54,040 nt of DNA, from assembly GCA_043810635.1 (NCBI GenBank), contig JBDRNY010000021.1, positions 1 to 54,040 of the forward strand, read 5' to 3'. The notes under the pieces were generated by a model that worked only from the letters and a program-made list of their open reading frames with translations, did not search any database and was not told where the DNA came from. Below are positions 652 to 31,888 of the stretch, in pieces. The stretch comes from Candidatus Micrarchaeota archaeon (GTDB lineage: Archaea; Micrarchaeota; Micrarchaeia; Anstonellales; Anstonellaceae). The position numbers and the translations under genes were made by a program. Position 1 is the stretch's first letter. Each line of letters opens with the position of its first letter.

Positions 652-664
652 CAGATAATTTTTC

Positions 665-678
665 TTTTTATAAAAAAC
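665..678 (+). promoter_or_regulatory. Candidate TATA box for the 725-20229 operon
   Basis: TTTATAAAAA lies about 50 nt upstream of the ATG at 725, in the only intergenic gap (73 nt) before the nine-gene cluster. Confidence 0.3.
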
Positions 679-724
679 TCATAATAGCGGGATTTTTCTC
701 TGAAGATATAGTTTTTAAAAGATA

Positions 725-3700
725 ATGCAGAGTTTCGGAGTAATGGAAAGCCGATGCGGGAGGGTGGGGTTAGGTGTTTTTCTAGCTCTAATCTTATTTA
801 TATCTTTAGTTGCAGGGGCAGATTGCGAAGGCTCTCCTCCGTGTGATGGAAAAGAGTGCGCAGATGAAAACTTGGAATGTGTGGAAGCGGCGGGAAAATG
901 CACCTGCCAGTCAATATGCACTGAGCCTCCGAAACGCACATATATTGAAGCGTTTTATGAAGATTATAAGAGCACAAAAAATAAGGGCACCCTCGATATA
1001 AATGTTTTTTATATAGATGACAGCGGGCAGGTGCCTGAAAAAAAGCCAGTGGAAGGAGGACTTGTAATAATAGACAGCGGGGCATATGTCAAAGGAGGAG
1101 GGTACGACCCCTTTGGAGGGGCAGGTGCCAACAAAGTATGCAGAGCAACTACAGACAGCGAAGGAAAAATATTGGTTAATCTTCCCCACCCCTCAGGAGG
1201 GCAGAAAATAACGCACAGAATAATTTTTTGCCCTTATACAGATATGACAAGTGAGGGGGGGAAAGAGGATTTGGCAGTCTGCGCAAGGCTGTATGACAAT
1301 AATGCAGATGTTTATGAAAAAATCAATTGGCAGGAAATTCCAGTATGTGAAGGAAATCAGCCAGACCCTGAAAACAATATGCTGTTTAACGGGGAGGATG
1401 TAAAAAAGGCAGATAGGATAGGCCCCTCTGAAACATCTGTTGAAGCAATAAACAACAACCCTTCCGCAGCTGCCACCACATTTTGCTGGGCGCTTGCAAT
1501 TGTATTCGGGCTTCTTTTGTCTGCCTCATACACGGTTGGCAGAAACCCGCTGATGTTTCTTGACATGAACAGCATGCGCCAGGTGAAAATGAACAGAAAT
1601 TTTGGATATTATTTTCCAAGAACCCAGAATGTGAGCGTAAATGTTGAGGCGATTGCAAATACCATATACAGTGCTGCAAAAGTTGCAACCGCCAAAAAGG
1701 AAAAGAAGGGGGAGGGAAAGGAGGATGGAAAAAAGGAAGAGCCAAAGCAAAGGGAAGGGGAAAGCAATGAGGATTTTGAAGGAAGAAAGCTGGGTGAAAA
1801 AATTGCAGGTGAAATGGGTTCGTTTTCAATGGACGGCCTTCTTTCAGGAACATTTTTGGACAATAAATATGATTCTGCATATGCAAAATCAAGGGGAGGG
1901 ATAAGACAGGAGTTGCTGGCTCCTGTGCTTGGGGACCCGGCAAAAGGCGAAAATGTAGCAGGTGAAAACTTGTTTGGCGACAGCCCGTTTTTACGAGGCC
2001 TTGGAAGAGTGAGTGTAAGAATGCTTGCATCTGGAATGCTTGAAGGGGGAGTAAATCTTGTAGGAGGGGCAATAAAAGGAGGGCTGAAAGGGGGATTTAA
2101 AGGCGCTGTTAAAGGCATGAAATTTGGAAAAGCAGGCAGTTATGCAGGCATGAGGATATTGAGGGAAGGATACCGCCCGCTTGTGTGGGAGCTGCTCAAA
2201 GGAGGGGTGATGCTGGCTCCGGCATCAGATGAAACTGGTGCAGATGTGGAAGGCCCGGTTGCTGTAGGAGGAAAGTTTGAAGCTGTGGAAAAGCTTAAGA
2301 AAACAGTTGAAGGGAGAGAATACAGTGGAAAGTTTGATATAGCTGGAAATGAAAGCATTGGCTACACTGTTTCAGGAAAAATTGTTGCTTCAAAAAAATT
2401 GGAAGATACAAAAAAGAAATTAAGGAACCTTAAGAGATTTGTCCCTAGTGGTTCTTATCCAACCTTTTCAACCCGGGATAACGTTTATGCAATATTTGAT
2501 GATAAAGAAATTGCCAAACTTAATAAGATGCTGGCGGGGGAAAAAACAATAATAACAGATAAATTCGGAAGGAAATATTTAGTGGAAAAAAACTGGGATA
2601 TGTATAGCATGACAACAACTTTTGATATAACAATGGAAGGCACTAAGCTGAAAAGCGCTGAATTTACCAAAGACGGAAGAGTAAAGCTTGAGCTGTATGC
2701 TAAAACAACAGAGGATGGGTTTCCGGATTTAAAGAGCGAGGTGCTGACATATAATACAGATTATGCACTAAATATGGAAACAGGAAAAGTGCAGCTTGTA
2801 GACAATCTTTTAAGCAACCCGAGCCAGGGCGAATATTTCAAAACAAGCAGTGCAGGCACAATTGCATTCAACCCAAACACCCAGGAAATGATTACCCTTC
2901 AATCAGGGGAAAACTTTGCTGTCACAACACAAACAAGGCTTGTTTTGTCTTCAATATTCAGGGGGGAATGGATAGATGCATTGCAAGAGCTTGCAAAGCC
3001 GGTTACTGGAACAGTTGCCAGCTTGCTTGCAATAGGAAAAGGGCTTAAGGGAGAGTATGTTTTAAAAAAGGCTGAAAGAACATTTGGCAAAGGGTATGAG
3101 AGATTTAAGATAAAAAAAATATCGCAAAATAAAGGAATAGTTGTTGAATTGTTTCAAAATGCTGAAGGAGAACAGGAGGAAGGTAGGGAGGTTGGGACAT
3201 TTGAAAAAGGAAATATAAAATTTTCAGAAGAGTATGCTGGCTCGTTTGACAGCAATAGAATTTACAGGGTTGATGGAGAGAGCATTTTTGATGTAACAAC
3301 TGAAGTTAATGGCAAAACTACGCAAATAAACGGGACTGAAATTGACGGCACCAGAATAAATATTGGCGGGAAAGAGCTTGAAATAATAAATAAGATGATG
3401 CCTGATAAGGAGCTAAATGTCCAGATAATTGTGGACCCGAATAAACCAAGCAGGGCAACGGGAGAATTTGAAGTTGTGGCGCTAATATACCGCTCTGGTT
3501 ATGGCGTGGAAAAAATAACAGATGGAAAAGGGAATAAAATTGAATCAATAAATGCAAACGGAGTGGAGTATGGATTTGAGACAGGAAAAAACATGGAAGG
3601 CAAATCAGACAGCCATGTGCTTGCTGTTTCCCAGGTTGGAAAAGTTTCCGGAAATGTGGATGTGAATGCATGGGATTTGGTTATTGCAAAGCCAAACGGG

Positions 3701-5038
3701 GAATTGTATACGATTGACGGAAGGGCGGCGAAAAATTTTGATGAAGTGTATAAATCCATTTTATATGATGTTTATGGAATGAGCAGCAATGCAGAGCAGA
3801 TGGCAATGCAGCATAAAATGAATGACATGCTGCAAAAAAGCAATAAAATACTTAATGATGCGCAGCTGTCGTCAGAGCATGAAAAAGAACTGGATAATAT
3901 TGAAAAAGGGCTTAGAAGCCAGCTGCCTGAAAATGTAAAAGTTATGGACGGCACCCAGCTTAGGAAATTTGTTCTGGACGGGAGAGGTGCCAAGCTTACA
4001 GAAGCGCAGCAAAAATCATTGAACACGCTTATAGGCGTGGTCCATTACTCGGAATTTCAGTCTACAGATATGAAAGATTTGGAATCAACAATGTATATGT
4101 CAGGCTTTGTTGTAAGGAAGACAGCAAACACTCAGATTGTCAATTCAATGCTTCTTGAAAAATCAATCAGAAATGAGCTGAGGCAGGAATACGGGACCAT
4201 GGACATAAATGAGCTGCGTGCCATAGCGCAGAAGGGGACAGATTACGCAAAATTAGACCCATATTCTTTAGAGCCAACAAAAAATGAAATAAATGCAATC
4301 AAAAAGCTTAATGCGCTTAACAGCGGAATTGGAAGTGTGCTGGGGATATACAATACGCTCTCATCAGGTGAGCAAAAGCTTGCCAATAATATTGTGAAAG
4401 CGGAAATGGCAGACGTTGCCATGACAAGACATTCCGTATTGATGCAAGAATCTAATTTGGACAATATGGTTGAAACAAATCTTCGGCTGAAATCCGGAAA
4501 CCAGCATCTCGTTAAGATTACAAAAATAGAAAGGGAGGCGGCACAAAAGGCTGAGGAAAGCTTTGATAAAATGCAGGAAAAGCTGGGAAGGATTGATGAA
4601 ACTTTAGGCAAAAAAGTGCCTACAGTATTTGAAGAGCATAAAAGAAAAGTTGGAAGCAAAATAAGAATTGTCAAAGTTCCGACAGATTATAAACCGGAGA
4701 TAGTTGTAAACCAAAAAGCAATGGATGAATTTAGAAATGATGTTAAGGCATACCAAAGCCAGCAAAGAAAATTTGAGCAGAATATGAACAATATAAATGT
4801 TCTTAGAATGGCGGGAGATGCGATTGCAAATACTATGACTCCTGTACTTTCCAAAAAAAGAAAGTCAGGGGAATTGAGGGTGCTTATGAAGGAAACAAGC
4901 GAATTGGCATTGAACTATGCACGCCCGAGAGTTTTAGAAAAGAAAAAAGCCGAAATACTTGGGAAAATCCAGCAAAATATTGTAAGGATAAATAATATAT
5001 CCCAACAAGAAAAAGGGATTGAAAAGAAGAAAAAATAA
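725..5038 (+). CDS. Giant single-pass membrane protein (1437 aa) of unknown function, first gene of the cluster. It has a signal peptide, a ~220-aa Cys-rich ectodomain, one TM and a ~1160-aa Cys-free cytoplasmic domain.
   Basis: Long ORF. N-terminus is VGLGVFLALILFISLVAGA followed by CEGSPPCDGKECADENLECVEAAGKCTCQSIC. The TM is TFCWALAIVFGLLLSASYTVGRN. The remaining ~1160 aa contain no Cys, a Gly/Lys-rich segment (GGAIKGGLKGGFKGAVKGMKFGKAG) and a charged, coiled-coil-like C-terminal third. I see no recognisable enzymatic motif. Confidence 0.85.
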   Translation: MQSFGVMESRCGRVGLGVFLALILFISLVAGADCEGSPPCDGKECADENLECVEAAGKCTCQSICTEPPKRTYIEAFYEDYKSTKNKGTLDINVFYIDDSGQVPEKKPVEGGLVIIDSGAYVKGGGYDPFGGAGANKVCRATTDSEGKILVNLPHPSGGQKITHRIIFCPYTDMTSEGGKEDLAVCARLYDNNADVYEKINWQEIPVCEGNQPDPENNMLFNGEDVKKADRIGPSETSVEAINNNPSAAATTFCWALAIVFGLLLSASYTVGRNPLMFLDMNSMRQVKMNRNFGYYFPRTQNVSVNVEAIANTIYSAAKVATAKKEKKGEGKEDGKKEEPKQREGESNEDFEGRKLGEKIAGEMGSFSMDGLLSGTFLDNKYDSAYAKSRGGIRQELLAPVLGDPAKGENVAGENLFGDSPFLRGLGRVSVRMLASGMLEGGVNLVGGAIKGGLKGGFKGAVKGMKFGKAGSYAGMRILREGYRPLVWELLKGGVMLAPASDETGADVEGPVAVGGKFEAVEKLKKTVEGREYSGKFDIAGNESIGYTVSGKIVASKKLEDTKKKLRNLKRFVPSGSYPTFSTRDNVYAIFDDKEIAKLNKMLAGEKTIITDKFGRKYLVEKNWDMYSMTTTFDITMEGTKLKSAEFTKDGRVKLELYAKTTEDGFPDLKSEVLTYNTDYALNMETGKVQLVDNLLSNPSQGEYFKTSSAGTIAFNPNTQEMITLQSGENFAVTTQTRLVLSSIFRGEWIDALQELAKPVTGTVASLLAIGKGLKGEYVLKKAERTFGKGYERFKIKKISQNKGIVVELFQNAEGEQEEGREVGTFEKGNIKFSEEYAGSFDSNRIYRVDGESIFDVTTEVNGKTTQINGTEIDGTRINIGGKELEIINKMMPDKELNVQIIVDPNKPSRATGEFEVVALIYRSGYGVEKITDGKGNKIESINANGVEYGFETGKNMEGKSDSHVLAVSQVGKVSGNVDVNAWDLVIAKPNGELYTIDGRAAKNFDEVYKSILYDVYGMSSNAEQMAMQHKMNDMLQKSNKILNDAQLSSEHEKELDNIEKGLRSQLPENVKVMDGTQLRKFVLDGRGAKLTEAQQKSLNTLIGVVHYSEFQSTDMKDLESTMYMSGFVVRKTANTQIVNSMLLEKSIRNELRQEYGTMDINELRAIAQKGTDYAKLDPYSLEPTKNEINAIKKLNALNSGIGSVLGIYNTLSSGEQKLANNIVKAEMADVAMTRHSVLMQESNLDNMVETNLRLKSGNQHLVKITKIEREAAQKAEESFDKMQEKLGRIDETLGKKVPTVFEEHKRKVGSKIRIVKVPTDYKPEIVVNQKAMDEFRNDVKAYQSQQRKFEQNMNNINVLRMAGDAIANTMTPVLSKKRKSGELRVLMKETSELALNYARPRVLEKKKAEILGKIQQNIVRINNISQQEKGIEKKKK

Positions 5039-5056
5039 TTGGGAGGTTATGGCAGG

Positions 5057-6208
5057 ATGCTGAATGACTATATGGTTGCCCTTCCTTACGGAATTGCAAT
5101 CGGAAGCGCAATAGTTGCCCTTGCATATATGGCGGGCGCGTTTTTGCAGTCAAAACAGGCAAAAGCTTATGCAAAAACAGAGATGGGGGAGCTTGTACTA
5201 TCTGCAATTATTGTGGTTATTGCATTAAGCGTATACAGCTCGCAGGATATTAACATTGCACTAACAGGCAGTGCTGATATTCAGGGAGCGACAATAGACA
5301 GTATGAAAGTATATATGGAAAAGCCGCTAAACGATGCGTTTGTTTCCCTTGTAAGCTCAAGCTATTCATTAAGCAAATATATTTCATATAACTATAATAT
5401 CCAGCTGCCGCTTCCGGGCTTTTCACCCCAGACTGCCCAAAGCAAGGGGATAGGAGCATATCCCCTCAGCCTGCAACTTATTAGGGGAATTGATGCAATA
5501 TCACTGAACCTTTTGCTTGTAAGGGCAATGATGGTGCTTTATATTTTCCTTGAATTTGCATTCAAGCATATGCTTCTTCCTGCAGGAATTATTTTGCGCT
5601 TTATTCCGCCAACAAGAAAGATGGGCGCAATTTTAATAGGCACAGGGCTTGCAGTGCATCTGGCATTTCCTGCGGCGGTGGTATGGACAGGCTCTATGGC
5701 GCAGGATATTATGCCAAATTATGATGCACCCATAAGGGAGCTGGCAGACCCGGGAGATCCTGCATCTGCAGGAATTATCTGCAATGAAGTGGTGCAAACT
5801 GTTTATGGAATAGGGGATATGTTCGGGCCTTTGCTTATATGCATGACAGCATGCCTTGCAGCAACTGTAGGCTATCTTGCATGCGTGGGCTGGCCTTCAG
5901 TATGGCCTTTTACCACAGGCTCGGGATGCCTTGCAGGAGTATCAAGCGGATGGCAAATATACCAATATGCATTTCCCTTAACTGTTGGGCCAAACCTTGA
6001 GCTTTCAAGCATTGTGCTGACAGCAGAAAAGGCGGAAGAAATATTTGGAATAATTTTAGAGCAGATAATTCCTGCTGTAATGGAAAGGCATGTTGCAATA
6101 CTTATCATGGTAATTTTGCAGCTTACAGTTACTATTGTGCTTGCGCGGGCATTTTCCCAGGCAATAGGCGCAGAGGGTCAGATTTACGGGCTTAGCAGGT
6201 TGATATAA
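5057..6208 (+). CDS. Polytopic membrane protein, TM-core paralog 1 (no N-terminal signal peptide, small ectodomains)
   Basis: The ORF track starts at TTG 5039; ATG 5057 follows a GGAGG at 5042. It shares with paralogs 2-6 the TM hairpin (LAYMAGAFLQSKQAKAYAKTEMGELVLSAIIVVIAL), the core LLPAGIILRFIPPTRKMGAILIGTGLAVHLAFP and the C-terminal tail AIGAEGQIYGLSRLI. Confidence 0.85.
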   Translation: MLNDYMVALPYGIAIGSAIVALAYMAGAFLQSKQAKAYAKTEMGELVLSAIIVVIALSVYSSQDINIALTGSADIQGATIDSMKVYMEKPLNDAFVSLVSSSYSLSKYISYNYNIQLPLPGFSPQTAQSKGIGAYPLSLQLIRGIDAISLNLLLVRAMMVLYIFLEFAFKHMLLPAGIILRFIPPTRKMGAILIGTGLAVHLAFPAAVVWTGSMAQDIMPNYDAPIRELADPGDPASAGIICNEVVQTVYGIGDMFGPLLICMTACLAATVGYLACVGWPSVWPFTTGSGCLAGVSSGWQIYQYAFPLTVGPNLELSSIVLTAEKAEEIFGIILEQIIPAVMERHVAILIMVILQLTVTIVLARAFSQAIGAEGQIYGLSRLI

Positions 6209-6210
6209 AT

Positions 6211-7179
6211 ATGGAAAAAATACGCATGCTTGCATTGTTTTTTGCGGTTTTGTTTAGCATAAATATTGCATCAGCGCAAGATGTGTGCTTTGGGCAGACA
6301 ATGAACTGGGCATTGGAGCCGAGGTTTGCAATAGGCGGGGGGGCTCTTATAGGGTATGGAATTTTGATTATGGCATTTTTGTGCGTAGGCGCATATATGA
6401 TTGGAAAAGCTTTCAGCAAGCCGGAGTTTGTTGTGTGGGGCGCAAGCGAGGGAGTTACGCTCGTCTGGTCAATTCTGCTGATAATTGGAGTGCTGGCTGC
6501 ATTTATTTTTTCATGCGAGCTTTCCCAAAAAATTGCAGAAATAAACAACCCCAACAAAAGCCCGGCACATATGGCAACATTGGGCTTGAATGACTTGAAC
6601 AACAAATTTGGAATAACGATTGCAAAGGATTTGCAGGAGGATGCTATACATGACATGTTTGAGGGGATGTATTATGCATATTGGTCAATCCCTGCAATGG
6701 ACGGAGGAGGGCTTGCTTACAGGGCAAACAAGAGGGCATGGGCAACGCAGAGGGAGGTGCTTATAGATATCTATCTTCCGCTCAGCTATCTGCTGCATGC
6801 ACAAGAGCTTTTTCTTGAAATTTTGATGCCCGGTGTGATTGCAATTATTCTGCCTGCAGCGCTTTTCTTCAGGATGCTTTTTGTTACCCGGGATGTGGGA
6901 AATATTTTGATTGCTCTTTCCTTTTCAATATATTTTGCATTTCCGCTTGTGTATTTGCTCGCATTTTCTGCAACTGAAAACATGACAGCTGATTTTGAAG
7001 GGGATGAAAAAAACCCTTTTGAAAAAATGTCGCTTGCAAAAGATATGGTTGTTGGGGATGCGTTCCAAAAAATAGGGTATCTGGCGGCTGTTGCAGTTCT
7101 TTTGCCAAACCTTGCGCTTGTAATAGTTATTACAATGACAATGTCATTGTACAAGGCAATGAGAGGTATTGTTGCATGA
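6211..7179 (+). CDS. Polytopic membrane protein, TM-core paralog 2
   Basis: It has a signal-peptide-like N-terminus (LFFAVLFSINIASAQD), the TM hairpin GAYMIGKAFSKPEFVVWGASEGVTLVWSILLIIGVL and the core ILPAALFFRMLFVTRDVGNILIALSFSIYFAFP. Its stop overlaps the next start (ATGA at 7176). Confidence 0.85.
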   Translation: MEKIRMLALFFAVLFSINIASAQDVCFGQTMNWALEPRFAIGGGALIGYGILIMAFLCVGAYMIGKAFSKPEFVVWGASEGVTLVWSILLIIGVLAAFIFSCELSQKIAEINNPNKSPAHMATLGLNDLNNKFGITIAKDLQEDAIHDMFEGMYYAYWSIPAMDGGGLAYRANKRAWATQREVLIDIYLPLSYLLHAQELFLEILMPGVIAIILPAALFFRMLFVTRDVGNILIALSFSIYFAFPLVYLLAFSATENMTADFEGDEKNPFEKMSLAKDMVVGDAFQKIGYLAAVAVLLPNLALVIVITMTMSLYKAMRGIVA

Positions 7180-10100
7180 TATTGAATTTAGTCAAAAAAT
7201 TTGCGCCGGTTGTGTTGGCATTGCTCATTCTTGCTAGTGCAGCAAATTTTGCGCAAAAAAATGTAACCGAGCTGATTGAAGCGCAGATTCAAAACCCTCT
7301 TGCATACTGGGTTACAAATTATGAGGCGGTTGCCATTCTGGCCGCCATAATTGCAATTATTTTGGTGGCTTTGCTGTATTTTGCATCAAAATTCTTTGAA
7401 AGCGAGGAAATGGCAGGGCTTGCAAAAACAGAGCTTGTGCAGGCGGTTGCAGGAATTATTATACTGATAATTTTCCTTGCATTTGTCAATACATCAGACT
7501 GGCTCATAAACTATTCTGCTGAAAATATTAAGAGCCCGTGCCTTGACCCGAATTTCAATCCGCCTCCCCAGGCAACAACAATAAACAAATATGCTGCATG
7601 CTATACCCATAACCTGAAAGCAATGGCAGTAAGCATTGGAAAAAAAGCGCTCGGGGAGTCTGTTAAAGAGGCAAGAGAAGCATATTCAAGCTGGGGTTAT
7701 CAGAGCAATACAATATACCTGCTATACACTGGAATAAGCGGGAGGTTTAATGCGCACAAGAGGCTTGACTCTGAAATAAACGGGCTTGAATTTGATTTGG
7801 CAACAATATATATTACAAGCCTTGAGGCGCAGGAAAAATTTCTTAACAACATTGTGCCGGTGCTTGGGCCAAGCGCGCTTTTGATTGGAATTGTATTGCG
7901 CTCATTTTTCTTTACAAGAAAGCTTGGCGGGCTGCTTCTTGCAATAAGCATAGGGTTGATGATAATATTGCCTGCATGCTATCTTTTGGCATGGTACACT
8001 TTGCAGGTTGCGGCATATGGCGGGAAAGCAATAGGCGAGCCTGAAAGCTTATGCCCTGAAGGGTGCAAAGTGCTTCCGCCGTGGGGCTATTTGAAATCAA
8101 AAAATATTGATGGTGCGCAGCTTGCAATGGGCTTTTATGATGATGAACACAGGGTTGATGATTATGGAGTGTATTCTTTTGCAGATGTGGAAGAGATTAA
8201 TTTAAAGAGGGTGGAAAACGGAAAAGAGATGCTTACATTAAAAGACGGGGAAGCATGGATGGATGAAGAGAAAATTCAGGTTTGCTTCCCAAGGGACAAC
8301 TCCGGCTGGGGGAGTGCATTCAGTGCAGAGGATTCTGCAAACTGCCCTGCAGAATGCAGGTATTTGCCAACTCCAACAGAAATTAATTGCGACCAAAGCG
8401 CATGCGACAAAATTCCTGCAGCATGCAAAGCAGTAAGGGCAATGACAGAAGAGGATTTTGCCGACTATTGCACAGTAGAGAAAAACAAAGATTTTGCATG
8501 CTATTGCCCAGAAGACTGCATGCTTGATTTGCCTTTTGTTGAAGAGGATGCTGGTGCTGTAAACAAAGAAATGCTGGAAAGCAAATTTATGCAAATAAGC
8601 GAAAATGCAAACAAGTTTGCAGAAGATCCGCCGTTTGACTGTACAAAATGTCCGGTGCACTGCAGAGGTTATTATTCTGATATTGAGCCACAGGAAGTGA
8701 CCCATGCAGGGCAGGATAATGCCTGTGACAAGGAATGTGCAAACTGTTTTGAAGCAAAGCCTGATGTGCTTACAGGAATTCCTTCTTTGCGCACCACAAC
8801 ATGCAATTCCGAGCATACATGCGGAGACCCGTTAAGCGCCCGTGATGCGATTGCACAGGGAAGGCTTGATGTCTGCCCTATTGAATGCAGGGCAATTTTT
8901 GACGGGGTGGATGAAAAATACAAAGACCCGTATTATATTTATTATTGCGAGCAAAATTTCAAGAAAGTGTGTGAAGGCAGATGCCCTGAAAAATGCAAAA
9001 TCAAAATTTCAGATGTTGTTGCTATGGGAGGCTGCAGCTCTCCCCCAAAATTTGAAAATTTGGCAGGAAGAGCATGCACATATGAAGATGTAAAAGACGG
9101 GTGGGACGGAAACAATGCAAAATGCCTGATGGAAGCAGAAATTACTGCAAATTGCGCAAGATGCCCACTTGCGTGCAGGTTTGTAAACCCAAGCTCTATA
9201 CCAGAATACAAAGAAGATGACCTGGATACTGAGGAAGACGAATCAGAGCAGCTGGAGCTTAATGAAAACAATATTGAATTTTGCTCAGATCCGGATGTAA
9301 GAAGGTTTTGCACATGGGACAGCCCAAGGGATTATTGCAACTTAGGCGTGTGCGGGGTTGACAGGGAAACAGAAGGGCCTTTCTTGTGTGAAATTGAAGA
9401 CTTGTCATATAAATATTCGAATTTGCCGAATAATGAAGAATATTGCGGAACATGCTATACTATAAATAGTGCAAAAACAACAGGCCCGCAATGCCAGGTT
9501 TTGCTTTATTGGCAAAATGAAGAAGGAGAAATTCCTGCAGAATGCTCTGATGCTTGCAATCCTGGCACCACTAATGCCAGGGCGGGCGGGCAATGCAATG
9601 GATTTTGCTATCCAAGGCTTGAAATTCCTTCTGGCGGAAGCTGTGGGGAATATGATGAAAATAGCAGGGGTGAGGATGACAGGAGCATGGTAAACGGCGC
9701 GGCATGCCCCCTGAATTGCAGATATGATTATATGACAAAAAGCGGGGAAAAAATGCCGAATTATGCATTGCAAGCCTGTGGCTATGAATTAGATTTTTCA
9801 GACGGGCCGAAGGAGTGTGATACACGCTGTGAAGGAAGGGTTTATGGAACACGCAACAAAGACTGGTGCGAGGGAAGACGCAATGCAAATGCAGTCTGCA
9901 ATAGTGATGGCAGAACAAGCAGGGTATGGTATCACATAAATTCAGCGCCAGAAGTTCCAGATATGACAAGCTCATGCCCGTGTGAAGATGATAATGAATG
10001 CAATCAAAATACATGTGAGGATTCTAGAGGGGTTGAATACACAATAGGAAGGCTTCCAATTTATTCCTGCCAACGCCAGCAAACATATGATGGGTGGGAT

Positions 10101-12241: not shown

Positions 12242-12468
12242 TGGAAAAAATAAATAAAATGCAGAAAGATGCCCGCATTTTCGCGAAAAAAGCCAGCTAC
12301 AGCTTCTTGCTTGCAATTATGATTGCGCTTCTTTTTTCAAATTTTGCATTTGCAGAAATAATAGCAGAAGTGCAATATTCGGTAAATGACCAGCCGCCAG
12401 GGCAACAGCCTCCTGCAGAAATGCAGAGCAATGATATGCTTCAAACATTTGTTTGGCCCTCATGCGAG

Positions 12469-12478
12469 CCCCCCCCCC
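12469..12478 (+). repeat. Poly-C tract (C10) causing frameshift 1 in paralog 5
   Basis: Sequence reads gag-CCCCCCCCCC-tcatgc. With 9 C the frame reads ...WPSCEPPPSCSGQFYVTYTYSCGG. The tract is flanked by the direct hexamer TCATGC. Confidence 0.9.
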
Positions 12479-13208
12479 TCATGCTCAGGGCAGTTTTATG
12501 TTACTTATACCTATTCCTGCGGAGGGGAAGATGTAGATATTTCGGAATATGATGTTCAGGCAGGCGACCCTATATGGGAATTTTTTATTGCAAAATCATA
12601 CCCGCAATGCCAGAATTTGGATGTTTTGCAAAAAATTGAAGTAAAAGACACAAACCCCCCGGAAGATGAGCTAATTCCGCCCGTTCAAAATCCAATTATA
12701 ATAAACTGGGTGAACCAAAACCTTCCGCCAGATGTTGCAATAGACATGATTAGCCCTGAAGAGCGTGCATACACTCCGGGAGAAGATACGGAAATAGATA
12801 TTTATATTGAGTTTCGGGATTCTGATGATTTGGCAAAAAGGCTGATGACTAATGTACAAATAATGCATGACGGAGAAATAACGGGCAGTGTTTCCTGCAT
12901 TCCCGCGCTCGGAGGGCTGCAATGCACAGAGCAGGGCGATTTGGATAAAATGATCGAAACGCTTGGCGGAAGTTTTATCCACTACGTGATGCGAATAGAC
13001 AGCTCAACATATACACAAGATATTTTGGTTAAGGCAAATGTACAGGATCCGCAGGGGCTGCAAGATGCAGCAGATATGATAATTACTTCTGGAGATTTGC
13101 CAAAAAAGCCTGAAATTTTAGGTTATACTCCTGATGAACCGAGAAATGATGAGGAAATAATTGTTAGTGCAAGGCAGGATGAATTAAATGTTGGAAATCC
13201 AAACAGGC

Positions 13209-13216
13209 ATATATAT
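13209..13216 (+). repeat. (AT)4 dinucleotide repeat causing frameshift 2 in paralog 5
   Basis: Sequence reads c-atatatat-ac. Removing one AT unit gives cat ata tac aaa gtg tat gat = HIYKVYD, which matches the next tandem repeat. Confidence 0.85.
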
Positions 13217-15191
13217 ACAAAGTGTATGATAAAGATGGGGATTTGCAGTTTGAACAAACAGAGCCATTTGAGATGGTATTTCCGCCTCCACCGTCCATAA
13301 CAACTTCATATTCATTCACATGCACACCTGAAATATGCAAAAATAAAATTACTGTGGAAGTAATTGCAATCGGGAACGGGCTGGCTTCAGAATCTGCATT
13401 TATTACTATTGATTTGGATGATGGTGCACCAAGATATCTTATGCCCCCGCTAATCAGGATAGAGCCAGATGATCCTGAATGGGGGGAGGATTTTATTATT
13501 TATACAACACAGCCAGATGAGAGCCTGCCAGCACTTGAGCACAAATATAAAATTTATGAAATTGACGGGGAGGAGCAGGAGGAAATCCTGAGCTTTACCC
13601 TCCCTGTGCAAAACAGGGAAACCCAATATAATTTTGAGTGCGGAAGCGAGTATTGCGACAATCCAATTCTGGTTACAGTGAAAGCAGCAGATGGTTCTGA
13701 TGAATCAGAAGCAGGAAATTTGCTTATACAATTCAGGCCGGTTGCCCTGCCCCCGCCAGTGCTTGTTTCCGCAACTCCGCAGGATGTTTTTGAGCAGCTG
13801 GATTGGGATGGCATTGCCCTGATATTTTCTGAAAGCGATGTTATAATAAATATTGAAGCCGGAGGAGGGGGGCAAACTCCTGATAAGTTTGTTTATGAGG
13901 GCACAATAAACGGGGAAGAAATGGGCATTATTTCAGGCACCAAGCCTGCATCAGAGCTGCAGCAGATGAGAATAAATTGCAATGATATTGGATGCAAATA
14001 CGGGGATTATATAAGGCTGGATATAACAGCATATGAAGGGGTGAGGCAGAGCAGGCCGCTCTCCCTCAACTTTTATGTATCAGACCCAGAGCAGGGCTTA
14101 ATGCCTGCAATTGGAAGAATTTGCAGCAAGAAAGAAATCAACTCACTTATAGTTTATTCTGTAGCAGGGTTTGTTGCAATGATATTTATAATTGCAATAA
14201 CATTTATGCTGGGAAATGCACTCCATCAGCCGAGGTTTTTAGACTGGTCAAAAATGGAAGCAATGCAGATTGTTTTTTCATTTGTATTGTTTGCCTTGAT
14301 ATTTATTGCACTCCAGCTGCAATGCAACCTGAATATTGTTGAATTTAAAAACTGGCTTGGGGGGCAGGGAGGGCTTGCCCTTCGCGGAACTACAATGATG
14401 GAAGCTGCACAAGATTATGTTGAATGGTCGGTGGGGCAAACACACCTTACCCTGGTTATGCTGAGAAGGGATTTGGGGGCAATAAACATGCGCGCAACCT
14501 ATTCAAACTATGACAACCAGGGCTTGGGGCTTGGAATGAACGGATTTAGCTATGCGCCCTATTCAGGAGATTATACCACCACAGGCGCAATGGGAATGTT
14601 AATGAACCTGAATACTGGATTTATGCTGACAAATCTTTTTGAATATTTTTCGCTTGCATTTTTTGCATCCAGCACAGGGTTTCTTATATTTCTGGTGCCT
14701 ATTGGATTTTTGCTGCGCTCGGTGCCTTTCCTGCGCGGGCTTGGAGGGGGATTAGTTGCAATAGGAGTCGGGTTTTATATCATGTACCCGATTATTTTTG
14801 CCATGCTTGCAATCGCGCTTCCGCCGGCAATAACCAATGATGCAAGCAAAGTGTTTGATGACAGGTATTGCGGGGGAAAAGACTGCGGAACAGGAAACAA
14901 TTTGCAGCTGAAAATTGACAAGGTGCAGGCTGATGAGGAGAGCATTACAGGAAAAAACATATTTTCATATTTTGACGACCATCCAAACCCAAAAATAAAT
15001 ACCAACCCTAATGATGAAGAGTTTCCAAGGGTTGATTTGGCCACATTCTTCAGGCTTACTGCAATCAATTTTATAAGAACATTTTTCCTTCCAACTGTCG
15101 GCCTTGTTATAACAATTTCAATCATACGAGATATGTCAGGACTGCTGGGCGATGAAGTTGATGCGACAAAGCTTGTGCAAATGGTGTGATA

Positions 15192-16364
15192 ATGGAAAAT
15201 AGAAAATTAAATGCACGAAAAATCTGGCTTGCGCTTGCCTTTCTTATTGCAATCAATGCAATTATGCCCGCACTAAATGCTGCTGATGAAAGCACATGGG
15301 GAAGTGAGGAAGATGCTGCAAGAGTTAAATATTTCTTCCTGCAGCCGGGGGAGGAAGGGGCAGCGCAGGATACACGGCACCAGTGGAGAGGCATTGCAAT
15401 GCTTGCAATTGCAGTATGCATTTTTGCAAATATACTGGTTTATATGACAGGAAGGGCATTGGGAATGCAAAAAGTGGAAAGGTTTGCAATATCTGAATTT
15501 TACCAGGTAAGCGCATCTGCGATTATGATATTTTTGCTTATTTTGGTAGCAGAGGAAGGGTTTAATTTCCTTGCCCATGAAAGCGTGGGAATACTTCCGG
15601 AAGGCACAACTACAAAATGCGCAGGCGAGGAAAAAAATGTTTGGGAAGAGGGGCCGTTTGGAATAATGAGGTGCAAAATACAGGAAAAAATAATATATTT
15701 GGAAAAGCTTTATGACCAGGCATATGAAAACAACAAAAGAGTAGAATGGAAAACAGCTACATGCATTTATTTCATGAGCCTGCCGGTGTATTGCGGAGAC
15801 TGGAATATTGGCTGGCATGCAACTGTTGAAAAATCGCATTATATTGCGCACAAGATTGCGCCTATTGCAATCAATCTGCATGGCCAGTATATTTTTGCAA
15901 CCTATCTTGAGCAAAATATGCTTGCAGTGTTTTTGCCGCTCGGGCTTATTCTAAGGATTTTTCCGCCATTCAGGGGGATTGGGGCAATGCTTATAGCAAC
16001 ATCAATCGGCTTTTATATAGTGTTTCCAGTGTCATATATTTTGCTTGACCCAAGCACTATAAGGCCTGACCCATCGCAGGTTGTTCCCTATGTTGATGAT
16101 GCAAATGTGGGCCAGTGCTATAGAAGCTTTTCAGGCATGATAACCCTTCTTACCAAGCCACCAGCGCAGGAGCAGGGGGCAGGCGGGGTGCAGCAATTGC
16201 CAGACCCGGATAGGATTGGGAAGGAGATTGCGAACCTGCAGGTTGAGGCATTTTTCTATCCCTTGGCAGCGCTTGCTGCCACAATGTTTTTCATAACAAC
16301 TGCAGCCCCCATACTCGGAGGAGATTCTGGAATGATAATGCATTTCTTGGCAAAGGTTATATGA
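15192..16364 (+). CDS. Polytopic membrane protein, TM-core paralog 6
   Basis: ATG 15192 lies 2 nt after the stop of paralog 5 (the track starts at GTG 15186). It has a signal-like N-terminus (LAFLIAINAIMPALNAADE), the hairpin LVYMTGRALGMQKVERFAISEFYQVSASAIMIFLLI, the core FLPLGLILRIFPPFRGIGAMLIATSIGFYIVFP and the tail APILGGDSGMIMHFLAKVI. Confidence 0.85.
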   Translation: MENRKLNARKIWLALAFLIAINAIMPALNAADESTWGSEEDAARVKYFFLQPGEEGAAQDTRHQWRGIAMLAIAVCIFANILVYMTGRALGMQKVERFAISEFYQVSASAIMIFLLILVAEEGFNFLAHESVGILPEGTTTKCAGEEKNVWEEGPFGIMRCKIQEKIIYLEKLYDQAYENNKRVEWKTATCIYFMSLPVYCGDWNIGWHATVEKSHYIAHKIAPIAINLHGQYIFATYLEQNMLAVFLPLGLILRIFPPFRGIGAMLIATSIGFYIVFPVSYILLDPSTIRPDPSQVVPYVDDANVGQCYRSFSGMITLLTKPPAQEQGAGGVQQLPDPDRIGKEIANLQVEAFFYPLAALAATMFFITTAAPILGGDSGMIMHFLAKVI

Positions 16365-16368
16365 GAGG

Positions 16369-19300
16369 ATGAAAATGGAAGATATAAAAAAAACTGCACT
16401 TTTGTTTGCGATTTTGGCAGCAATTGCCCTCTTTGCATCAGGATGCACCCAACAGCCGAATACAAACCTATCATATGCAGACTGCTGCCAATATTCAGAA
16501 AAAAATTATGAATGCTTTATGGTGATGGAGGGGGATGAGCCGAAAAGAGATGGTGACGGAAGAATCGAGCTTAGTGAATGCGGCATATGCGAAAGATGGG
16601 ATGATTCAAGCGGGCTGTTGTATGACAATGCAGGAAATATTTTGCTGGATAAAAAGAAAATTCCTATCACCCCGGCAGAATGTGAAAATAATTGCAATTT
16701 CCAAAAAGCTGACTGCACAAACGAGGATGAGAGCGGAAACTGCTACCTTGTTGAAAACAACAAAATAAACCAAGATGTTGTTGTTGCCCCGATTTGCAGG
16801 GTTGCACCCGGAGACCCCTGCACCCAAAACGAATGCTCTGCAATGATATGCTCTGAGCAAAAACCAAGAGTAAGGCTTGCAACAAATGAGCAGGGGCTGA
16901 ATGCAATGGCTGAGAAGGGGAGCAGTGCAAGCAAGGATGTGGATGATGTTGGCGGGCTGAAGGGGATGATGTGCACATTTGACAAAATGAGCTCAAAAAC
17001 AACAAGGTTGCTAAAAAAAGGAGACGGATTTATAAATTCATTCAGGCTTGGAATTTCCGGGAGCTTTTCAGATTATGAGCAGGCGCGCTTTTACTTCCCG
17101 CCTTCGGATTTTTATTGCGGAAAGCTGGGGGAAAGGGCTGTTGTTGACAGGTTTGTAAATTATTTGGATGATGGAAAGGTATTGCCTCCGTTTAGGGGCG
17201 GAAATTTTATGGCAAAATTGCATTACTGCCAAAGGGATGGTGAAAAAGATGCAGATGATTCATATTGGTATTGCACAAATCCGCCCGAGCTGAGCGGCCT
17301 GAAATTTATTGTAGGGGAATATGCTTCAGATGAGGCTGCAGAATATGCTTGCGCAAATATTTGCAATTATTGGCAGGGAAAAACCTGCGAAAACAACAAC
17401 GAGCTTTATACTATTGATATTAATATTGCGCCACCGGGGGCAGATGAAAATATAGAAAAATTTGTAGATTATACAAGATATTATAGTTTGCTTGAAAAAG
17501 CTTATCCGATTCCGGACGCCCTTGATTATTACCATATAATGCCGCCCCTTGATGCAGGTGAGGAAGATATGGCAGCGGAGCTGCTAAAGCCGGGACCTGC
17601 AGGGGCACGGGTGTTTGAATGCACTGAAAGCACAGATTGCATGTCAAACATATGCAAAAAAGATGAGTTTAGCACAACCGCATGCTTTGACAAAAATACT
17701 GGCGAGAGGCTGGATTGCGGATGCAGGCTTATTTATGACTGTGATTTTGCATATTTGTGCGATCAGCTATATAAGAAAAGAACTGTTAAGTGGACAACAT
17801 GCTATAAATTAAGAAATGAATTGTGTGCATACAGGATTGGAGAGGGATATGTGCTTGCATGCGAATATAATGCAGTAGATAACAGAAAAGAATTTAGTGC
17901 ATTAAACGATTTTGGAGTGATTACGCTTGAAGATGACAAAATAAGGACTGGAGAATTTTGGGAGTTTGAGCAAACAAAAGACGAGCCACTGGAAATAGGG
18001 ATAATGCAAATGCTTGGGAAAAAAGAAAGGTGTTACAACAAAAACCTTGACCCGCAATGGAAAGACAAAAAAGAAGGAAGATGTCCCTCTGGGTATGAAA
18101 AAGAATTTTATTACAAATGGGTGAATGACCCTACAAGCGTTCGGGGATGTGTTGATGCGGAAGGAGGTTTTCGTGCATGCATAGAAGAGCATTGGGGCGC
18201 CTCGTTTGCGCCGGTTCCGTATGAGCAAATAATAATTGACACATACGGAGGGGGGACAAGCTTTTACACGGCCCCAGATATTACTTTTGAACAATTAAAG
18301 CAAAGAATGCCTGTTATTGATGCGTGTGAAATGCAATATGGAACAGATGTTATAGAATCAGAAACAAATGAAGGGACGCTGGAGGAAGCGCTTAAAAATT
18401 CAGGAGGGTATCCGCAGGATGAGAATGCAAAAAGAATAAACAAAATGTGGCGGCTTAATCGGCAAGGGGAAAATTCAGGGTTTGGAAAATGCATGCGCTC
18501 TGGAAAAGGGGATTATGACATGCCGTCGGTATTGGAATACGGAGTTTGCGAGCCTTGCGGCACCACTCTTTCATTGGCGTTTCAGAAAATTACAACTCAT
18601 GACAAAAGCTATTGCCCAACAACATGCAACACAGTATTTCCAATGTGCTTGTGTGATGATGAAGTGGAAGAACCCAGGGCGCACTTTATTTATTTGCATG
18701 AAACAGCTCCAAAAACATATCCAGAGTATGGATTTATTTCAAGCAAAATAGACGAATACATGGCTGCAGGCATAATGCCTGTGCTTGATATAAAAGAGTA
18801 TGAAATAACCACATCAGCACTTGGTTTGGACAAATATACTAGGTATTGGGATGCAGATGGAGAGGGGAGAGAATGGTGCGAGAATATGGGGGGGGAATGG
18901 GAAGAAGAGGGAAACTTTCTTGATTATTCAGACAGCTGCACCTGGGAAATTGGGCTTGGCGGAGATTATTTTCTAAAAGGATTGGCTGACGGGCGCTCTG
19001 CATCTATTCTTATAGTGGATGATTTGGAAGGGGTGGAAACCAAGCAGAGAATAAGCAATGTAAGATCACAGTGCCCGGATTGCATGCTTGCGCTTGAAAT
19101 AAAGCTTGAGGAGGGAGAGGTGCAGAAGGCAATGGAAGACGGCACCTACCCGCAAAGAGTTTCAGATATAATAAGAGAGTTTAGCGAAGAAAAGGAATAT
19201 GATGAATACAGATTTTCAGATCCTTGGGGAGGGATGCCAAAGCCGCCGCAGATAGCAGATGTGGATATTTTAGTGCTTAATATGAATTTGGAAGGTGCAA

Positions 19301-20229
19301 GCTTTGGAAATAAAGAAAAGCTGGATAAGGAAGTGAAAAACCTTGTAAATATGTCAAGAAAAATTTTGCAGCATGTTGGCTGGAAAACATTGTGGAAGTT
19401 TGAGGGGAATGAAAAAGCATACAAACACCAGGAATTTTACAAAACGCTTTGGGCAAACGAATATGAGATGAGTTTGTATGGTGTTGTGGGGATATTGCTT
19501 CCTCCAATGGATGAGCTTATTTACGGAAAGGACATAAAAGATGCAGAGAGTGCATTTTGCGCAGCAGAAGAAGGCTCTACAGAATTTTTGCATCCGGAAA
19601 ATGTGGTTGCATTGCAGCAGATTTATCCAAGGGAAGGATGCCAGTGCAACCCATGCACTGAAACCGAAATTAAACTTGACCAGTGCAAAGAGAGCGCAAG
19701 ACTTTGCCTTGACGGAATGCCATGCAAAAGTTATAATGAAGTGAGCGGGGAGTGGGATTTGCCCCCCTCAGGAAAATGCCAGGATGCATGTATTAGGGCA
19801 GATGGAGATTATATGAAAAAGTGCGAAGATGTGCAATTAGAAGTCACGTGCAGGGCTATGAGGTCAGATAATGAGTTGTTAAGATTATGCAGTGGGGCGC
19901 AGGATTTGCCTGAGTGCGATATTATTACATTTAAGATTAGCGAGCTTGTTACAAATCCGTTCTTAAGCCCGTACAGGGCAGAATTTATTGGGGGCCTACC
20001 TGCAAAAGAGCGCTGCTATATAGAGGAGGAAGATGCAAAATTCAGCTACCGCTTGCAAATATCTGCAAGGTCGTTTTCAGAACCCATGATATATCCAACT
20101 TATGGGGCAAACACAACAGAGTGCTCAAGGCTTAAGCTTACAGATGAGGATGTTGACACCTGCAACTGGGATTATAGAATTCCGTTGCCCATAAGAAAGA
20201 CTGCATGGACATGCACAATTTCAGGATAA
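16369..20229 (+). CDS. Giant Cys-rich secreted lipoprotein (1286 aa) of unknown function, last gene of the cluster
   Basis: It has a lipobox-like signal (LFAILAAIALFASGC). There are dozens of Cys throughout and no further TM segment. The start lies 4 nt after the stop of paralog 6. No recognisable domain. Confidence 0.85.
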   Translation: MKMEDIKKTALLFAILAAIALFASGCTQQPNTNLSYADCCQYSEKNYECFMVMEGDEPKRDGDGRIELSECGICERWDDSSGLLYDNAGNILLDKKKIPITPAECENNCNFQKADCTNEDESGNCYLVENNKINQDVVVAPICRVAPGDPCTQNECSAMICSEQKPRVRLATNEQGLNAMAEKGSSASKDVDDVGGLKGMMCTFDKMSSKTTRLLKKGDGFINSFRLGISGSFSDYEQARFYFPPSDFYCGKLGERAVVDRFVNYLDDGKVLPPFRGGNFMAKLHYCQRDGEKDADDSYWYCTNPPELSGLKFIVGEYASDEAAEYACANICNYWQGKTCENNNELYTIDINIAPPGADENIEKFVDYTRYYSLLEKAYPIPDALDYYHIMPPLDAGEEDMAAELLKPGPAGARVFECTESTDCMSNICKKDEFSTTACFDKNTGERLDCGCRLIYDCDFAYLCDQLYKKRTVKWTTCYKLRNELCAYRIGEGYVLACEYNAVDNRKEFSALNDFGVITLEDDKIRTGEFWEFEQTKDEPLEIGIMQMLGKKERCYNKNLDPQWKDKKEGRCPSGYEKEFYYKWVNDPTSVRGCVDAEGGFRACIEEHWGASFAPVPYEQIIIDTYGGGTSFYTAPDITFEQLKQRMPVIDACEMQYGTDVIESETNEGTLEEALKNSGGYPQDENAKRINKMWRLNRQGENSGFGKCMRSGKGDYDMPSVLEYGVCEPCGTTLSLAFQKITTHDKSYCPTTCNTVFPMCLCDDEVEEPRAHFIYLHETAPKTYPEYGFISSKIDEYMAAGIMPVLDIKEYEITTSALGLDKYTRYWDADGEGREWCENMGGEWEEEGNFLDYSDSCTWEIGLGGDYFLKGLADGRSASILIVDDLEGVETKQRISNVRSQCPDCMLALEIKLEEGEVQKAMEDGTYPQRVSDIIREFSEEKEYDEYRFSDPWGGMPKPPQIADVDILVLNMNLEGASFGNKEKLDKEVKNLVNMSRKILQHVGWKTLWKFEGNEKAYKHQEFYKTLWANEYEMSLYGVVGILLPPMDELIYGKDIKDAESAFCAAEEGSTEFLHPENVVALQQIYPREGCQCNPCTETEIKLDQCKESARLCLDGMPCKSYNEVSGEWDLPPSGKCQDACIRADGDYMKKCEDVQLEVTCRAMRSDNELLRLCSGAQDLPECDIITFKISELVTNPFLSPYRAEFIGGLPAKERCYIEEEDAKFSYRLQISARSFSEPMIYPTYGANTTECSRLKLTDEDVDTCNWDYRIPLPIRKTAWTCTISG

Positions 20230-28096: not shown

Positions 28097-28680
28097 GTTC
28101 TTGAGCCGGGCAGCCATGTGTAAACTGTCATATTTCCAACATATTGCGCCTGCTCGCTCCCTATCTCGCGCTCAACATAAACAACTCTTCTTACTTTTGC
28201 TATTTCTGCATTGGCAGGTGGTTCGTTTCCAAATTCAACATTTATGGCTTGGGGGAAAGGAGGATATTTGAATGTGTCAGGGTCTGCAATTGCAAGCCGC
28301 ATAACAACATAATATTCTGCAGAAGTTGCCATCAACACCCTTGAGTCATCATAATTTTGTCCGGGTATAAGATGCACGCTTGCAGCTTCTATATTTGGCC
28401 GCGGTACCCTTTGATAAACCAAATTTCCTGGAAATGAATTTTCCACTCCAAACCCTGCTCTCATTGCGCCTGAAGGGTTGATATACCAATTAGAAGGATT
28501 GCCAACTCCAAGCATTAAATCAGAAATTCGGTGAGCTTCGCTTTGCAAATAATCTGTATCTTCATTCATCTGGGAGCGGAGCGCAAACCAGTGGTTCATT
28601 AAAATAGAAAGGGCCATGATGAAAATTACAGAGGCAAGGATTGCATCAAATGAAAAATATTGCCCGCGCAAAAAATTCAT
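28093..28680 (-). CDS. Type IV pilin-like protein (class III signal peptide), 195 aa
   Basis: The N-terminus is MNFLRG/QYFSFDAILASVIFIMALSIL. The start overlaps the upstream stop (ATGA). Confidence 0.7.
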   Translation of the reverse strand: MNFLRGQYFSFDAILASVIFIMALSILMNHWFALRSQMNEDTDYLQSEAHRISDLMLGVGNPSNWYINPSGAMRAGFGVENSFPGNLVYQRVPRPNIEAASVHLIPGQNYDDSRVLMATSAEYYVVMRLAIADPDTFKYPPFPQAINVEFGNEPPANAEIAKVRRVVYVEREIGSEQAQYVGNMTVYTWLPGSRT

Positions 28681-29275: not shown

Positions 29276-29301
29276 GCTTTTCAATTCCAAACCTCTTTTT
29301 T

Positions 29302-29871: not shown

Positions 29872-29879
29872 AATACCAC

Positions 29880-31886: not shown

Positions 31887-31888
31887 AT

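Follow-up and report, generated by a model that had tools for sequence, protein, structure and literature searches.

A conserved six-paralog envelope operon of Micrarchaeota, a proposed and very divergent relative of type IV secretion-like systems

How DPANN archaea attach to their hosts and acquire what they cannot make themselves, nucleotides and lipids included, is a long-standing question. Cryo-electron tomography of DPANN archaea shows intercellular tubes and contact structures, and names no genes for them (PMC11329633). We analyzed a stretch of 54,040 nucleotides (contig JBDRNY010000021.1; hereafter the window), whose source is a Micrarchaeota (DPANN) archaeon and in which a 19.5-kb block of genes at positions 725–20229 raises the question of what such a cluster builds. 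An earlier reading of the letters alone (hereafter the sequence-only reading) had described the block as an operon of nine open reading frames (ORFs) with no recognisable family, and had proposed an undescribed trans-envelope or cell-contact apparatus. We found that the cluster is best described as a very divergent and much elaborated relative of type IV secretion system (T4SS)-like machinery, neither a member of a characterised machinery nor without relatives. In particular, we put at about one in two the probability that the block supplies the membrane and surface parts, for channel and adhesion, of an envelope machine that is specific to Micrarchaeota and distantly related to T4SS, Ced and Ted, with its motor encoded elsewhere. 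The link to T4SS-like systems is drawn because members of the membrane protein family recurrently match CedE and CedA, and because the corresponding gene arrays of other Micrarchaeota are linked to an ATPase.

The block is real, and its coordinates agree with those given before: long ORFs on the plus strand tile the interval between tRNA-His (580–652) and psmA (20334–21044), and its ~6,500 codons make up 36% of the window. A fragment of NMD3 and the tRNA-His gene lie upstream of the first gene, and psmA, SBDS, Rrp4, Rrp41 and Rrp42 lie downstream of the last. The co-directional operon of the sequence-only reading was recovered as well; however, it does not consist of nine intact genes but of eight overlapping ones, here called A to H, with F split into three ORFs by two frameshifts. 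The junctions quoted in that reading are correct (ATGA at C/D, TAATG at D/E, TGATG at E/F and spacers of 2–4 nt at B/C, F/G and G/H), whereas its overall range of gaps, –4 to +18 nt, does not apply inside F. Because orthologs occur in the same order on dozens of other contigs, A to H are genes and not chance ORFs. When all nine ORF products were scanned against Pfam and NCBIfam, no product scored above threshold; as had been claimed, no credible Walker A motif was found in the cluster products, and no Pfam match to a T2SSF-type platform protein or a T2SSE ATPase occurred in the cluster. The statement that the products belong to no recognisable family thus holds for curated families at their thresholds, but not for the recurrent matches to CedE and CedA and the ATPase-linked arrays of relatives described below.

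Six of the eight genes, all on the plus strand, form a tandem array of related membrane proteins. In array order, these are B (position 1; 5039–6208; 389 residues from TTG 5039, with ATG 5049 or 5057 as the likely start), C (position 2; 6211–7179; 322 residues, the minimal core version of the family), D (position 3; 7176–11084; 1302 residues, the family core with an extracellular insert), E (position 4; 11084–12241; 385 residues), F (position 5; 12241–15189; a signal peptide, an FnIII/Ig-like ectodomain and a C-terminal family core, as delimited by tblastn of intact orthologs) and G (position 6; 15186–16364; 390 residues from ATG 15192), the best-conserved paralog, which matches CedE and CedA. 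The assignments of B, C and E rest on their ORFs and on positional orthology. As the sequence-only reading had noticed, the six proteins are mutually paralogous and polytopic, with pairwise BLASTP E-values of 1e-5 to 1e-9 and a common motif, L-P-x-G-x-x-L-R-x5-R-x2-G...P. The family has five to six transmembrane (TM) segments, and none of its invariant residues (E102, L248, P249, R255, R261, G264 and P279 in the numbering of G) is in an ectodomain; they are found within the membrane core and on the cytoplasmic side of it. In an AlphaFold2 model of G (predicted local distance difference test score (pLDDT) 78.7, predicted template modelling score 0.71), an N-terminal signal-like helix (signal peptide) is followed by five long membrane helices and two extracellular loops. 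Long helices project outwards; helices and two β-hairpins form an extracellular domain between TM2 and TM3, and TM4 and TM5 are joined by a variable loop that is disordered. The family profile searched against PDB sequences yielded no VirB6 and chance matches alone, among them USP14 and designed proteins. A Foldseek search of the G model against the PDB gave a best E-value of 0.38; the BAR domains and ZnT1 that it returned (E ≥ 0.38) are generic helical bundles and meaningless as relatives.

The family is large: an exhaustive hidden Markov model (HMM) search recovered 2,796 representative clusters at E ≤ 1e-3 and 1,815 at E ≤ 1e-10. In gene maps, its members are almost always exactly six genes in a row. 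We compared 59 arrays of exactly six copies, and a protein at a given position found its best match at the same position in 49–80% of comparisons, against 17% expected by chance. For the six positions of the window array, the best matches were at positions 1, 2, 3, 1, 2 and 6 in L140 and at positions 1, 2, 3, 4, 4 and 6 in L141, two ATPase-linked loci discussed below. These positional matches indicate that the six-fold duplication is ancient, that each position forms an orthogroup of its own, that the subunits are not interchangeable and that their order is fixed. Because the gene number is fixed at six and orthology is positional, we propose that the six paralogs probably form an obligate hetero-oligomer, a hexameric ring.

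CedA and CedE are VirB6 homologs and the channel proteins of the Ced DNA import system of Sulfolobales (PMC11868833, PMC9905601). We scanned 117 diverse members of the family against NCBIfam and found that CedE was matched by 12 of them (best E = 1.2e-5) and CedA by 4 (5.7e-4), whereas all other NCBIfam families were matched by one member each at most. These matches share a common register, in which TM3–TM4 of the family, in some cases extended to TM5, align with positions ~112–247 of CedA and CedE. Since the components of Ced and Ted have no recognisable sequence similarity to each other (PMC9905601), weak signals are to be expected even for true homologs.

A second, independent line of evidence comes from the gene neighbourhoods of other Micrarchaeota. 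Three types of locus could be distinguished. Type I loci, including the window, have large extracellular inserts in the array, which is followed by H, and A either precedes the array or follows H; those of the closest relatives adjoin psmA–exosome or NMD3. Type II loci consist of a compact array and an A-like gene, usually divergently upstream and sometimes downstream. In type III loci, a compact array is followed by two paralogous 2-TM proteins of ~275 residues (c4), an ATPase of ~500 residues, small proteins, a winged helix–turn–helix (wHTH)/coiled-coil protein, a membrane protein of ~790 residues and a giant secreted protein. This order is present in the complete genome of Ca. Fermentimicrarchaeum limneticum and in further assemblies, and the combination of array, two c4 proteins and ATPase was found in L038, L047, L048, L052, L140–L144 and in more than 20 of the 80 metagenome loci retrieved with the ATPase. 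A metagenome scan with the ATPase of L051 as a single protein returned nothing; the ATPase loci came from an alignment-based rescan. A profile of the 2-TM protein c4 returned coiled-coil noise or nothing from the PDB.

In Pfam, the type III ATPase matches DUF87/HerA, AAA_10 and the TraG P-loop domain. Its NCBIfam matches are CedD (2.6e-20), VirB4-like CD1110 (4.5e-18), CedB (2.3e-17) and HerA (1.5e-16), all far below the equivalog cut-offs; its matches in the PDB are HerA proteins and the ATPase domain of VirB4 (4ag5). It is 53–87% identical across the phylum, has more than 1,000 homologs and is annotated at source as 'HerA-like'. We consider it to be, on these profile matches, a distinct and highly conserved member of the HerA/VirB4 superfamily. 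The ~15-gene string of Ca. Fermentimicrarchaeum limneticum (L140, 528–21539; CP058998.1, 33741–55279) and ~25 similar loci (L066–L144) carry the six paralogs, the two 2-TM proteins and an ATPase annotated as 'HerA' or 'ATP-binding protein'. These strings add a 99-residue repeat of the ATPase C-terminus, a Zn-ribbon/TM protein and a wHTH protein with weak CdvB/EAP30 matches, and they end in a membrane protein of ~800 residues and a secreted giant of up to ~2,900 residues.

A minimal module was found in L051 (2550–6462; JAKASF010000001.1, Micrarchaeota YP1.bin29), where a 125-residue protein, one family member, a 2-TM protein, the ATPase and a wHTH protein follow one another. The 125-residue protein, directly upstream of the family member, has a signal peptide and two TM segments and matches Pfam TrbC/VirB2 over positions 16–88 of 98, with E = 0.0024 and 18.5 bits (cut-off 27.9); the best match of the ATPase is CedB (3.4e-15). 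This order follows the pilin–channel–motor gene logic of Ted, Ced and T4SS, and in L051 the system may have a mobile or an ancestral form. A Thr-rich surface protein of 721 residues comes after the module. The ATPase module was also seen with no array next to it (L068 and L145), and c7, the small Zn-ribbon protein of type III loci, also precedes type I arrays in L017, L022 and L035; for these two reasons, we consider that the array and ATPase modules belong together and yet are separable.

Several observations weigh against a relationship of the window cluster to T4SS-like systems, or against parts of it. No family member reaches the curated cut-off for CedA, CedE, VirB6 or TrbL; G scores 17.8 bits against CedE (cut-off 400) and 14.8 bits against CedA (cut-off 330), and Pfam VirB6/TrbL is matched by none of the paralogs. 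The CedE matches probably come mostly from position-6 orthologs and are hence not independent, and the single family member of L051 has no CedA/E match. An hhalign comparison of the 117-sequence family profile with VirB6 of A. tumefaciens gave a probability of 0.09, with the single-sequence template making this a weak test; a tblastn search for VirB6 in plasmids had returned mostly near-identical Rhizobiaceae sequences. The G model showed no structural match to VirB6 among the 50 PDB matches listed by Foldseek. The comparison of the family with the pilin-like protein of L051 was negative (hhalign probability 0.5), and the match of D to Pfam TrbC is not significant (E = 0.73). Nor does the ATPase stand closer to VirB4 than to HerA. 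In the window itself, no ATPase, 2-TM c4 protein or pilin-like gene lies in or near the cluster; three ATPase homologs that were looked up to place the module in a genome with a type I cluster (P0268, P0217 and P0285) came from other assemblies. The giant secreted proteins of type III loci have no detectable homology to H or A. The hexameric ring, finally, is proposed from gene number and positional orthology only. Signals of relatedness to the VirB6/Ced machinery, a confident match to which would have contradicted the sequence-only reading, were thus found, but none of them is confident: the profile scores are sub-threshold, and Foldseek and hhalign were negative.

What the array carries on the outside of the cell is more variable than its core. 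In eleven housekeeping proteins of the window, the cytoplasmic baseline is 1.27% Cys, whereas the Cys-rich ectodomains reach 5–8%; the partition of cysteines that the sequence-only reading had described is quantitatively real. The insert of D, ~970 residues placed in the extracellular TM4–TM5 loop, holds 80 Cys in 970 residues (8.2%) and varies from 681 to 1816 residues among orthologs, in line with the hypervariability seen before. Along it (residues 293–1163 of D) lie ten CPxxC motifs, many of them with R or K as the next residue, which suggests a repeated, undescribed Cys-rich module. The N-terminal ectodomain of F is predicted to be a tandem of FnIII/Ig-like β-sandwiches: the AlphaFold2 model of the last F ORF (pLDDT 66.9) matched FnIII pairs of NCAM, Dscam and titin in Foldseek, with E-values of ~1e-7. 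H (16369–20229, plus strand; 1286 residues) is a predicted lipoprotein, wholly extracellular, with 65 Cys (5.2%). Its lipobox (..SGC) and the CC motif that comes next are kept in every ortholog, which bears out the earlier identification, and it follows the array in 27 loci; no match to H was found in Pfam, in NCBIfam or in the PDB (profile against PDB sequences). The ectodomains are thus highly variable and either disulfide-rich (D and H) or FnIII/Ig-like (F), and they fit a role in adhesion.

Gene A (725–5038, plus strand; 1437 residues) was described before as a single-pass protein with a giant cytoplasmic domain. Its translation and the map of TM segments and cysteines bear out the topology: a signal peptide, a Cys-rich ectodomain (residues 33–246; 11 Cys in 214 residues), one TM segment (247–265), a juxtamembrane part to about residue 320 and a cytoplasmic tail. 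The tail (residues 266–1437), rich in K, E and G, has no Cys in 1172 residues (P ~3e-7), for which compositional bias is the one explanation offered. The giant tail is, however, the least conserved part of A; conservation is limited to residues ~50–320, that is, the ectodomain, TM and juxtamembrane module. With an iterated HMM, this module was found next to the six-paralog array in 21 loci, which include all three types, and in three different positions. A word-indexed homolog search with full-length A returned the query alone, probably because low-complexity words saturated the candidate list.

The cluster was traced across Micrarchaeota. In a scan of one genome per GTDB species, with a search pattern tuned to G-type proteins, we obtained 54 orthologous loci, and all but one carry the labels Micrarchaeota, Micrarchaeia, Anstonellaceae, Bilamarchaeaceae or Micrarchaeaceae. 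At these loci the genes co-occur in orthologous strings, in keeping with the sequence-only reading, and in the close relatives L001, L003, L005 and L012 the cluster adjoins psmA–SBDS–exosome. All HMM matches with an organism name are from Micrarchaeota, and the word-indexed search returned 'hypothetical proteins' alone, nearly all with Micrarchaeota as source name. The exception is L050 (DATJMH010000008.1), which is labelled Saccharimonadales and carries the array. L050 and the proteins P0211 and P0247, which are labelled Candidatus Saccharimonadales or Aquilonibacter (bacteria) and represent the six-paralog array or its ATPase, are probably cases of mis-binning in public metagenome-assembled genomes (MAGs). 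Two arrays occur in one genome in LFW-35 (L015 and L032) and in the MAG closest to the window (L005 and L054).

Taken together, one conserved envelope operon, and not a metabolic one, is present, and a trans-envelope or cell-contact role, as first suggested, remains the best reading. As a working mechanism, the six paralogs would assemble in a 1:1:1:1:1:1 ratio as a hetero-hexameric ring in the cytoplasmic membrane, a channel platform of the VirB6/CedA kind, with the conserved E102 and R255/R261 at its cytoplasmic mouth. Two extracellular loops would bear the lineage-variable modules, disulfide-rich in D and FnIII/Ig-like in F, and D, F and H together could build a disulfide-stabilised adhesive extracellular cap that contacts the host cell. 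A may dock on the ring through its conserved extracellular, TM and juxtamembrane module, with its variable tail as a scaffold. Transport through the ring, between symbiont and host, would be powered by a hexameric motor of the HerA/VirB4 type whose gene lies elsewhere in the genome; if Ced, Ted and T4SS are a guide, the macromolecule moved would most likely be DNA, and protein or other cargo is also possible. A more specific form of this proposal, in which the six-fold pseudo-symmetry of a hetero-hexameric VirB6-like pore is matched to a hexameric HerA/VirB4-type motor and the whole, with its D/F/H cap, is a symbiont-side conduit taking host DNA or macromolecules, is tentative, and we hold it to be possible but doubtful. 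If true, it would give a molecular identity to the intercellular connections seen microscopically in DPANN–host pairs, and would define a new, phylum-defining class of archaeal secretion or uptake system, parallel to the essential chromosomal T4SS of Patescibacteria (candidate phyla radiation, CPR).

Alternatives to the proposed T4SS-like module differ in which part of this evidence they stress, and the first of them concerns the integrity of the locus. Intact orthologs of F (975–1115 residues) align across its three ORFs (12241–12552, frame 1; 12386–13300, frame 2; 13222–15189, frame 1), tblastn mapping them to frame 2 and then to frame 1, and F therefore carries two compensating frameshifts. 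One is at a run of ten C in a Pro-rich stretch of the ectodomain (12469–12478, plus strand), the sole homopolymer of at least 8 bases in the F region; the other is near 13195–13222, and both fall in the variable ectodomain. The run could be either an assembly error or a site of slipped-strand phase variation of a surface-exposed subunit; phase variation is unsupported, and neither an equivalent homopolymer tract nor a recurrent frameshift of F was found in seven related loci. One might conclude from the two frameshifts that the locus is decaying or artefactual, a pseudogenised relic or a mis-assembly. Yet the seven other genes are intact and have conserved orthologs, the shifts in F compensate each other within a variable region and relatives keep F whole, so that we consider a decaying or artefactual locus very improbable. 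A static structure, by comparison, would explain the cluster as it stands in the window: array, H and A would form a disulfide-stabilised structure at the surface, a scaffold of the envelope or an anchor for adhesins, which serves to attach the cell or to organise the S-layer. Nothing would be translocated through it, and the link to a motor in other lineages would be either ancestral or without relevance to this one. The absence of an ATPase in cis, the enormous extracellular mass (~2,200 ectodomain residues in D and H together, and the FnIII/Ig repeats of F) and the phylum-wide retention of a cluster that adjoins housekeeping operons are all in its favour. However, the invariant residues are those of the membrane core and the cytoplasmic face and not of the ectodomains; an anchor would hardly need as many as six conserved polytopic subunits, and the window array keeps positional orthology with the ATPase-linked arrays L140 and L141. 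We therefore regard this explanation as unlikely.

If the motor is given most weight, the machine might be an internal one, in which an FtsK/HerA-type pump on a membrane ring moves the cell's own DNA during division or budding. The ATPase does belong to the FtsK–HerA superfamily and is highly conserved across the phylum, the genomic context is of the housekeeping kind, and the neighbouring c15 protein weakly matches CdvB, MreC, ZapB and EAP30. Those c15 matches, however, are of the weak coiled-coil/wHTH kind; an internal machine would not be expected to have a lipoprotein on the surface or adhesin-like ectodomains that are huge and evolve fast, and some genomes have two arrays, all of which makes a division or chromosome-segregation device quite improbable. 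The alternative closest to our own description accepts the membrane machine and denies its ancestry: the family would not be homologous to VirB6/CedA, and a categorically new, unrelated ring would work with a HerA-type pump in some lineages, the resemblance to T4SS being analogy or recruitment of the same motor superfamily. That all direct tests of VirB6 membership failed or stayed sub-threshold, that T4SS have nothing corresponding to c4, c14, c15, A and H and that the ATPase scores about equally against HerA and VirB4/CedB speak for such a complex. Against this, CedE and CedA are the only families matched recurrently, in a consistent register, L051 shows the gene logic of Ted and Ced, and weak signals are what the mutual dissimilarity of Ced and Ted components (PMC9905601) would lead one to expect; we judge a new complex without common ancestry somewhat unlikely.

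We found no description of the cluster, or of any T4SS-like system in Micrarchaeota, in a T4SS review or in papers on Ced and Ted, on Micrarchaeota genomes and co-cultures and on DPANN cryo-electron tomography (PMC12857230, PMC9905601, PMC5498576, PMC8975820, PMC11329633), a literature search that was not exhaustive. The analysis provides a parts list for a Micrarchaeota-wide system, with six subunits for the proposed ring, an anchor of the A type, the surface proteins, the pair of 2-TM proteins and the ATPase of the HerA/VirB4 type. It is a concrete candidate for the connection between Micrarchaeota and their hosts, in the form of a defined and testable gene set, and is present in the complete genome of Ca. 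Fermentimicrarchaeum limneticum and in MAGs of the Micrarchaeaceae. The latter are the family of ARMAN-2-like strains cultured with hosts. If the T4SS-like relationship is true, it would extend such machinery to DPANN archaea, would represent the first fixed six-paralog VirB6-like assembly and would mirror the way in which CPR bacteria depend for epibiosis on a T4SS encoded in their chromosome. Should the link to VirB6 prove wrong, the cluster would be an entirely new membrane machine, which would be at least as interesting.

Three further features of the window may be mentioned. The A+T-rich spacer between tRNA-His and gene A (660–724, plus strand) contains TATA-like runs (TTTTATAAAAAA near 665–676) and, read from its letters, is possibly the promoter of the operon. 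On the minus strand at 28093–32548, unlinked to the cluster, five consecutive genes (195, 171, 189, 672 and 219 residues) have N-termini resembling archaeal class III (type IV pilin-like) signal peptides; none of them is matched in Pfam, and they are possibly a cluster for minor pilins or for a pilus tip. The 1121-residue product of a plus-strand gene at 35870–39235 has dozens of sequons of the form N-x-S/T, a stalk rich in Pro, Thr and Gly, a C-terminal TM anchor and no Pfam match; it looks like an S-layer or major surface glycoprotein.

How does the proposed T4SS-like module compare with systems that are known? The nearest are Ced of Sulfolobales and Ted of Thermoproteales, chromosomal, domesticated and minimal T4SS-like systems of archaea with a polytopic channel protein (CedA, CedE or TedA), an ATPase (CedB, CedD or TedB) and a pilin (CedA1 or TedC). 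The ATPase of the window's relatives has its best matches in CedD and CedB, L051 has a VirB2-like two-helix protein, and CedA and CedE have been proposed to form a hetero-oligomer (PMC11868833). However, Ced and Ted have one or two channel proteins, compared with six fixed paralogs here, and the Micrarchaeota system has giant Cys-rich or FnIII-like ectodomains and the extra conserved partners A, H, c4, c14 and c15. The window also differs in having no ATPase or pilin in cis and scores far below the family cut-offs. In addition, Ced and Ted belong to free-living Thermoproteota, whereas the present system belongs to DPANN symbionts and is known from genes alone.

As in VirB6, TrbL and TrwI, the proteins are polytopic with a large extracytoplasmic loop, and a VirB4-family ATPase is adjacent in relatives of the window. 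Their N-terminal module of a signal peptide and two TM segments resembles the VirB2-like N-terminal region of VirB6 and CedA (PMC9905601), a similarity that is not significant. Bacterial T4SS nevertheless differ in that no sequence, profile or Foldseek match to them was obtained, and no homologs of VirB3, 5, 7, 8, 9, 10 or 11 were identified. VirB6 of R388 is a homo-pentamer, in contrast to the hetero-hexamer proposed here. In the HerA–NurA system, the resemblance is limited to the motor: the array-linked ATPase of relatives matches DUF87/HerA models and HerA structures, but at ~52–60 bits compared with equivalog cut-offs of 800–970, and it is flanked by genes for membrane proteins, with no NurA, Mre11 or Rad50 beside it.

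Two bacterial systems offer parallels in biology rather than in sequence. The rvh T4SS of Rickettsiales (Rickettsia, Anaplasma and Ehrlichia) has four to five tandem VirB6 paralogs, some of thousands of residues (PMC7648143, PMC2653234), and shares with the six-paralog array both the tandem, enlarged VirB6-type arrangement and its occurrence in obligately host-associated organisms with reduced genomes. It differs in being bacterial, in its diderm envelope, in its full VirB8–11 scaffold and in having recognisable VirB6 paralogs, so that the likeness is at best an independent, convergent elaboration. The chromosomal T4SS of CPR bacteria is nearly ubiquitous in these ultrasmall epibionts, has no tie to mobile elements and includes components that are essential for epibiotic growth (PMC12102498, PMC12857230). 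It is a recognisable MPF-FATA system, with VirB4, VirB6, PrgI and other components detectable by standard HMMs and a single-copy VirB6; among bacteria, it is what a phylum-wide system of DPANN archaea is most naturally compared with.

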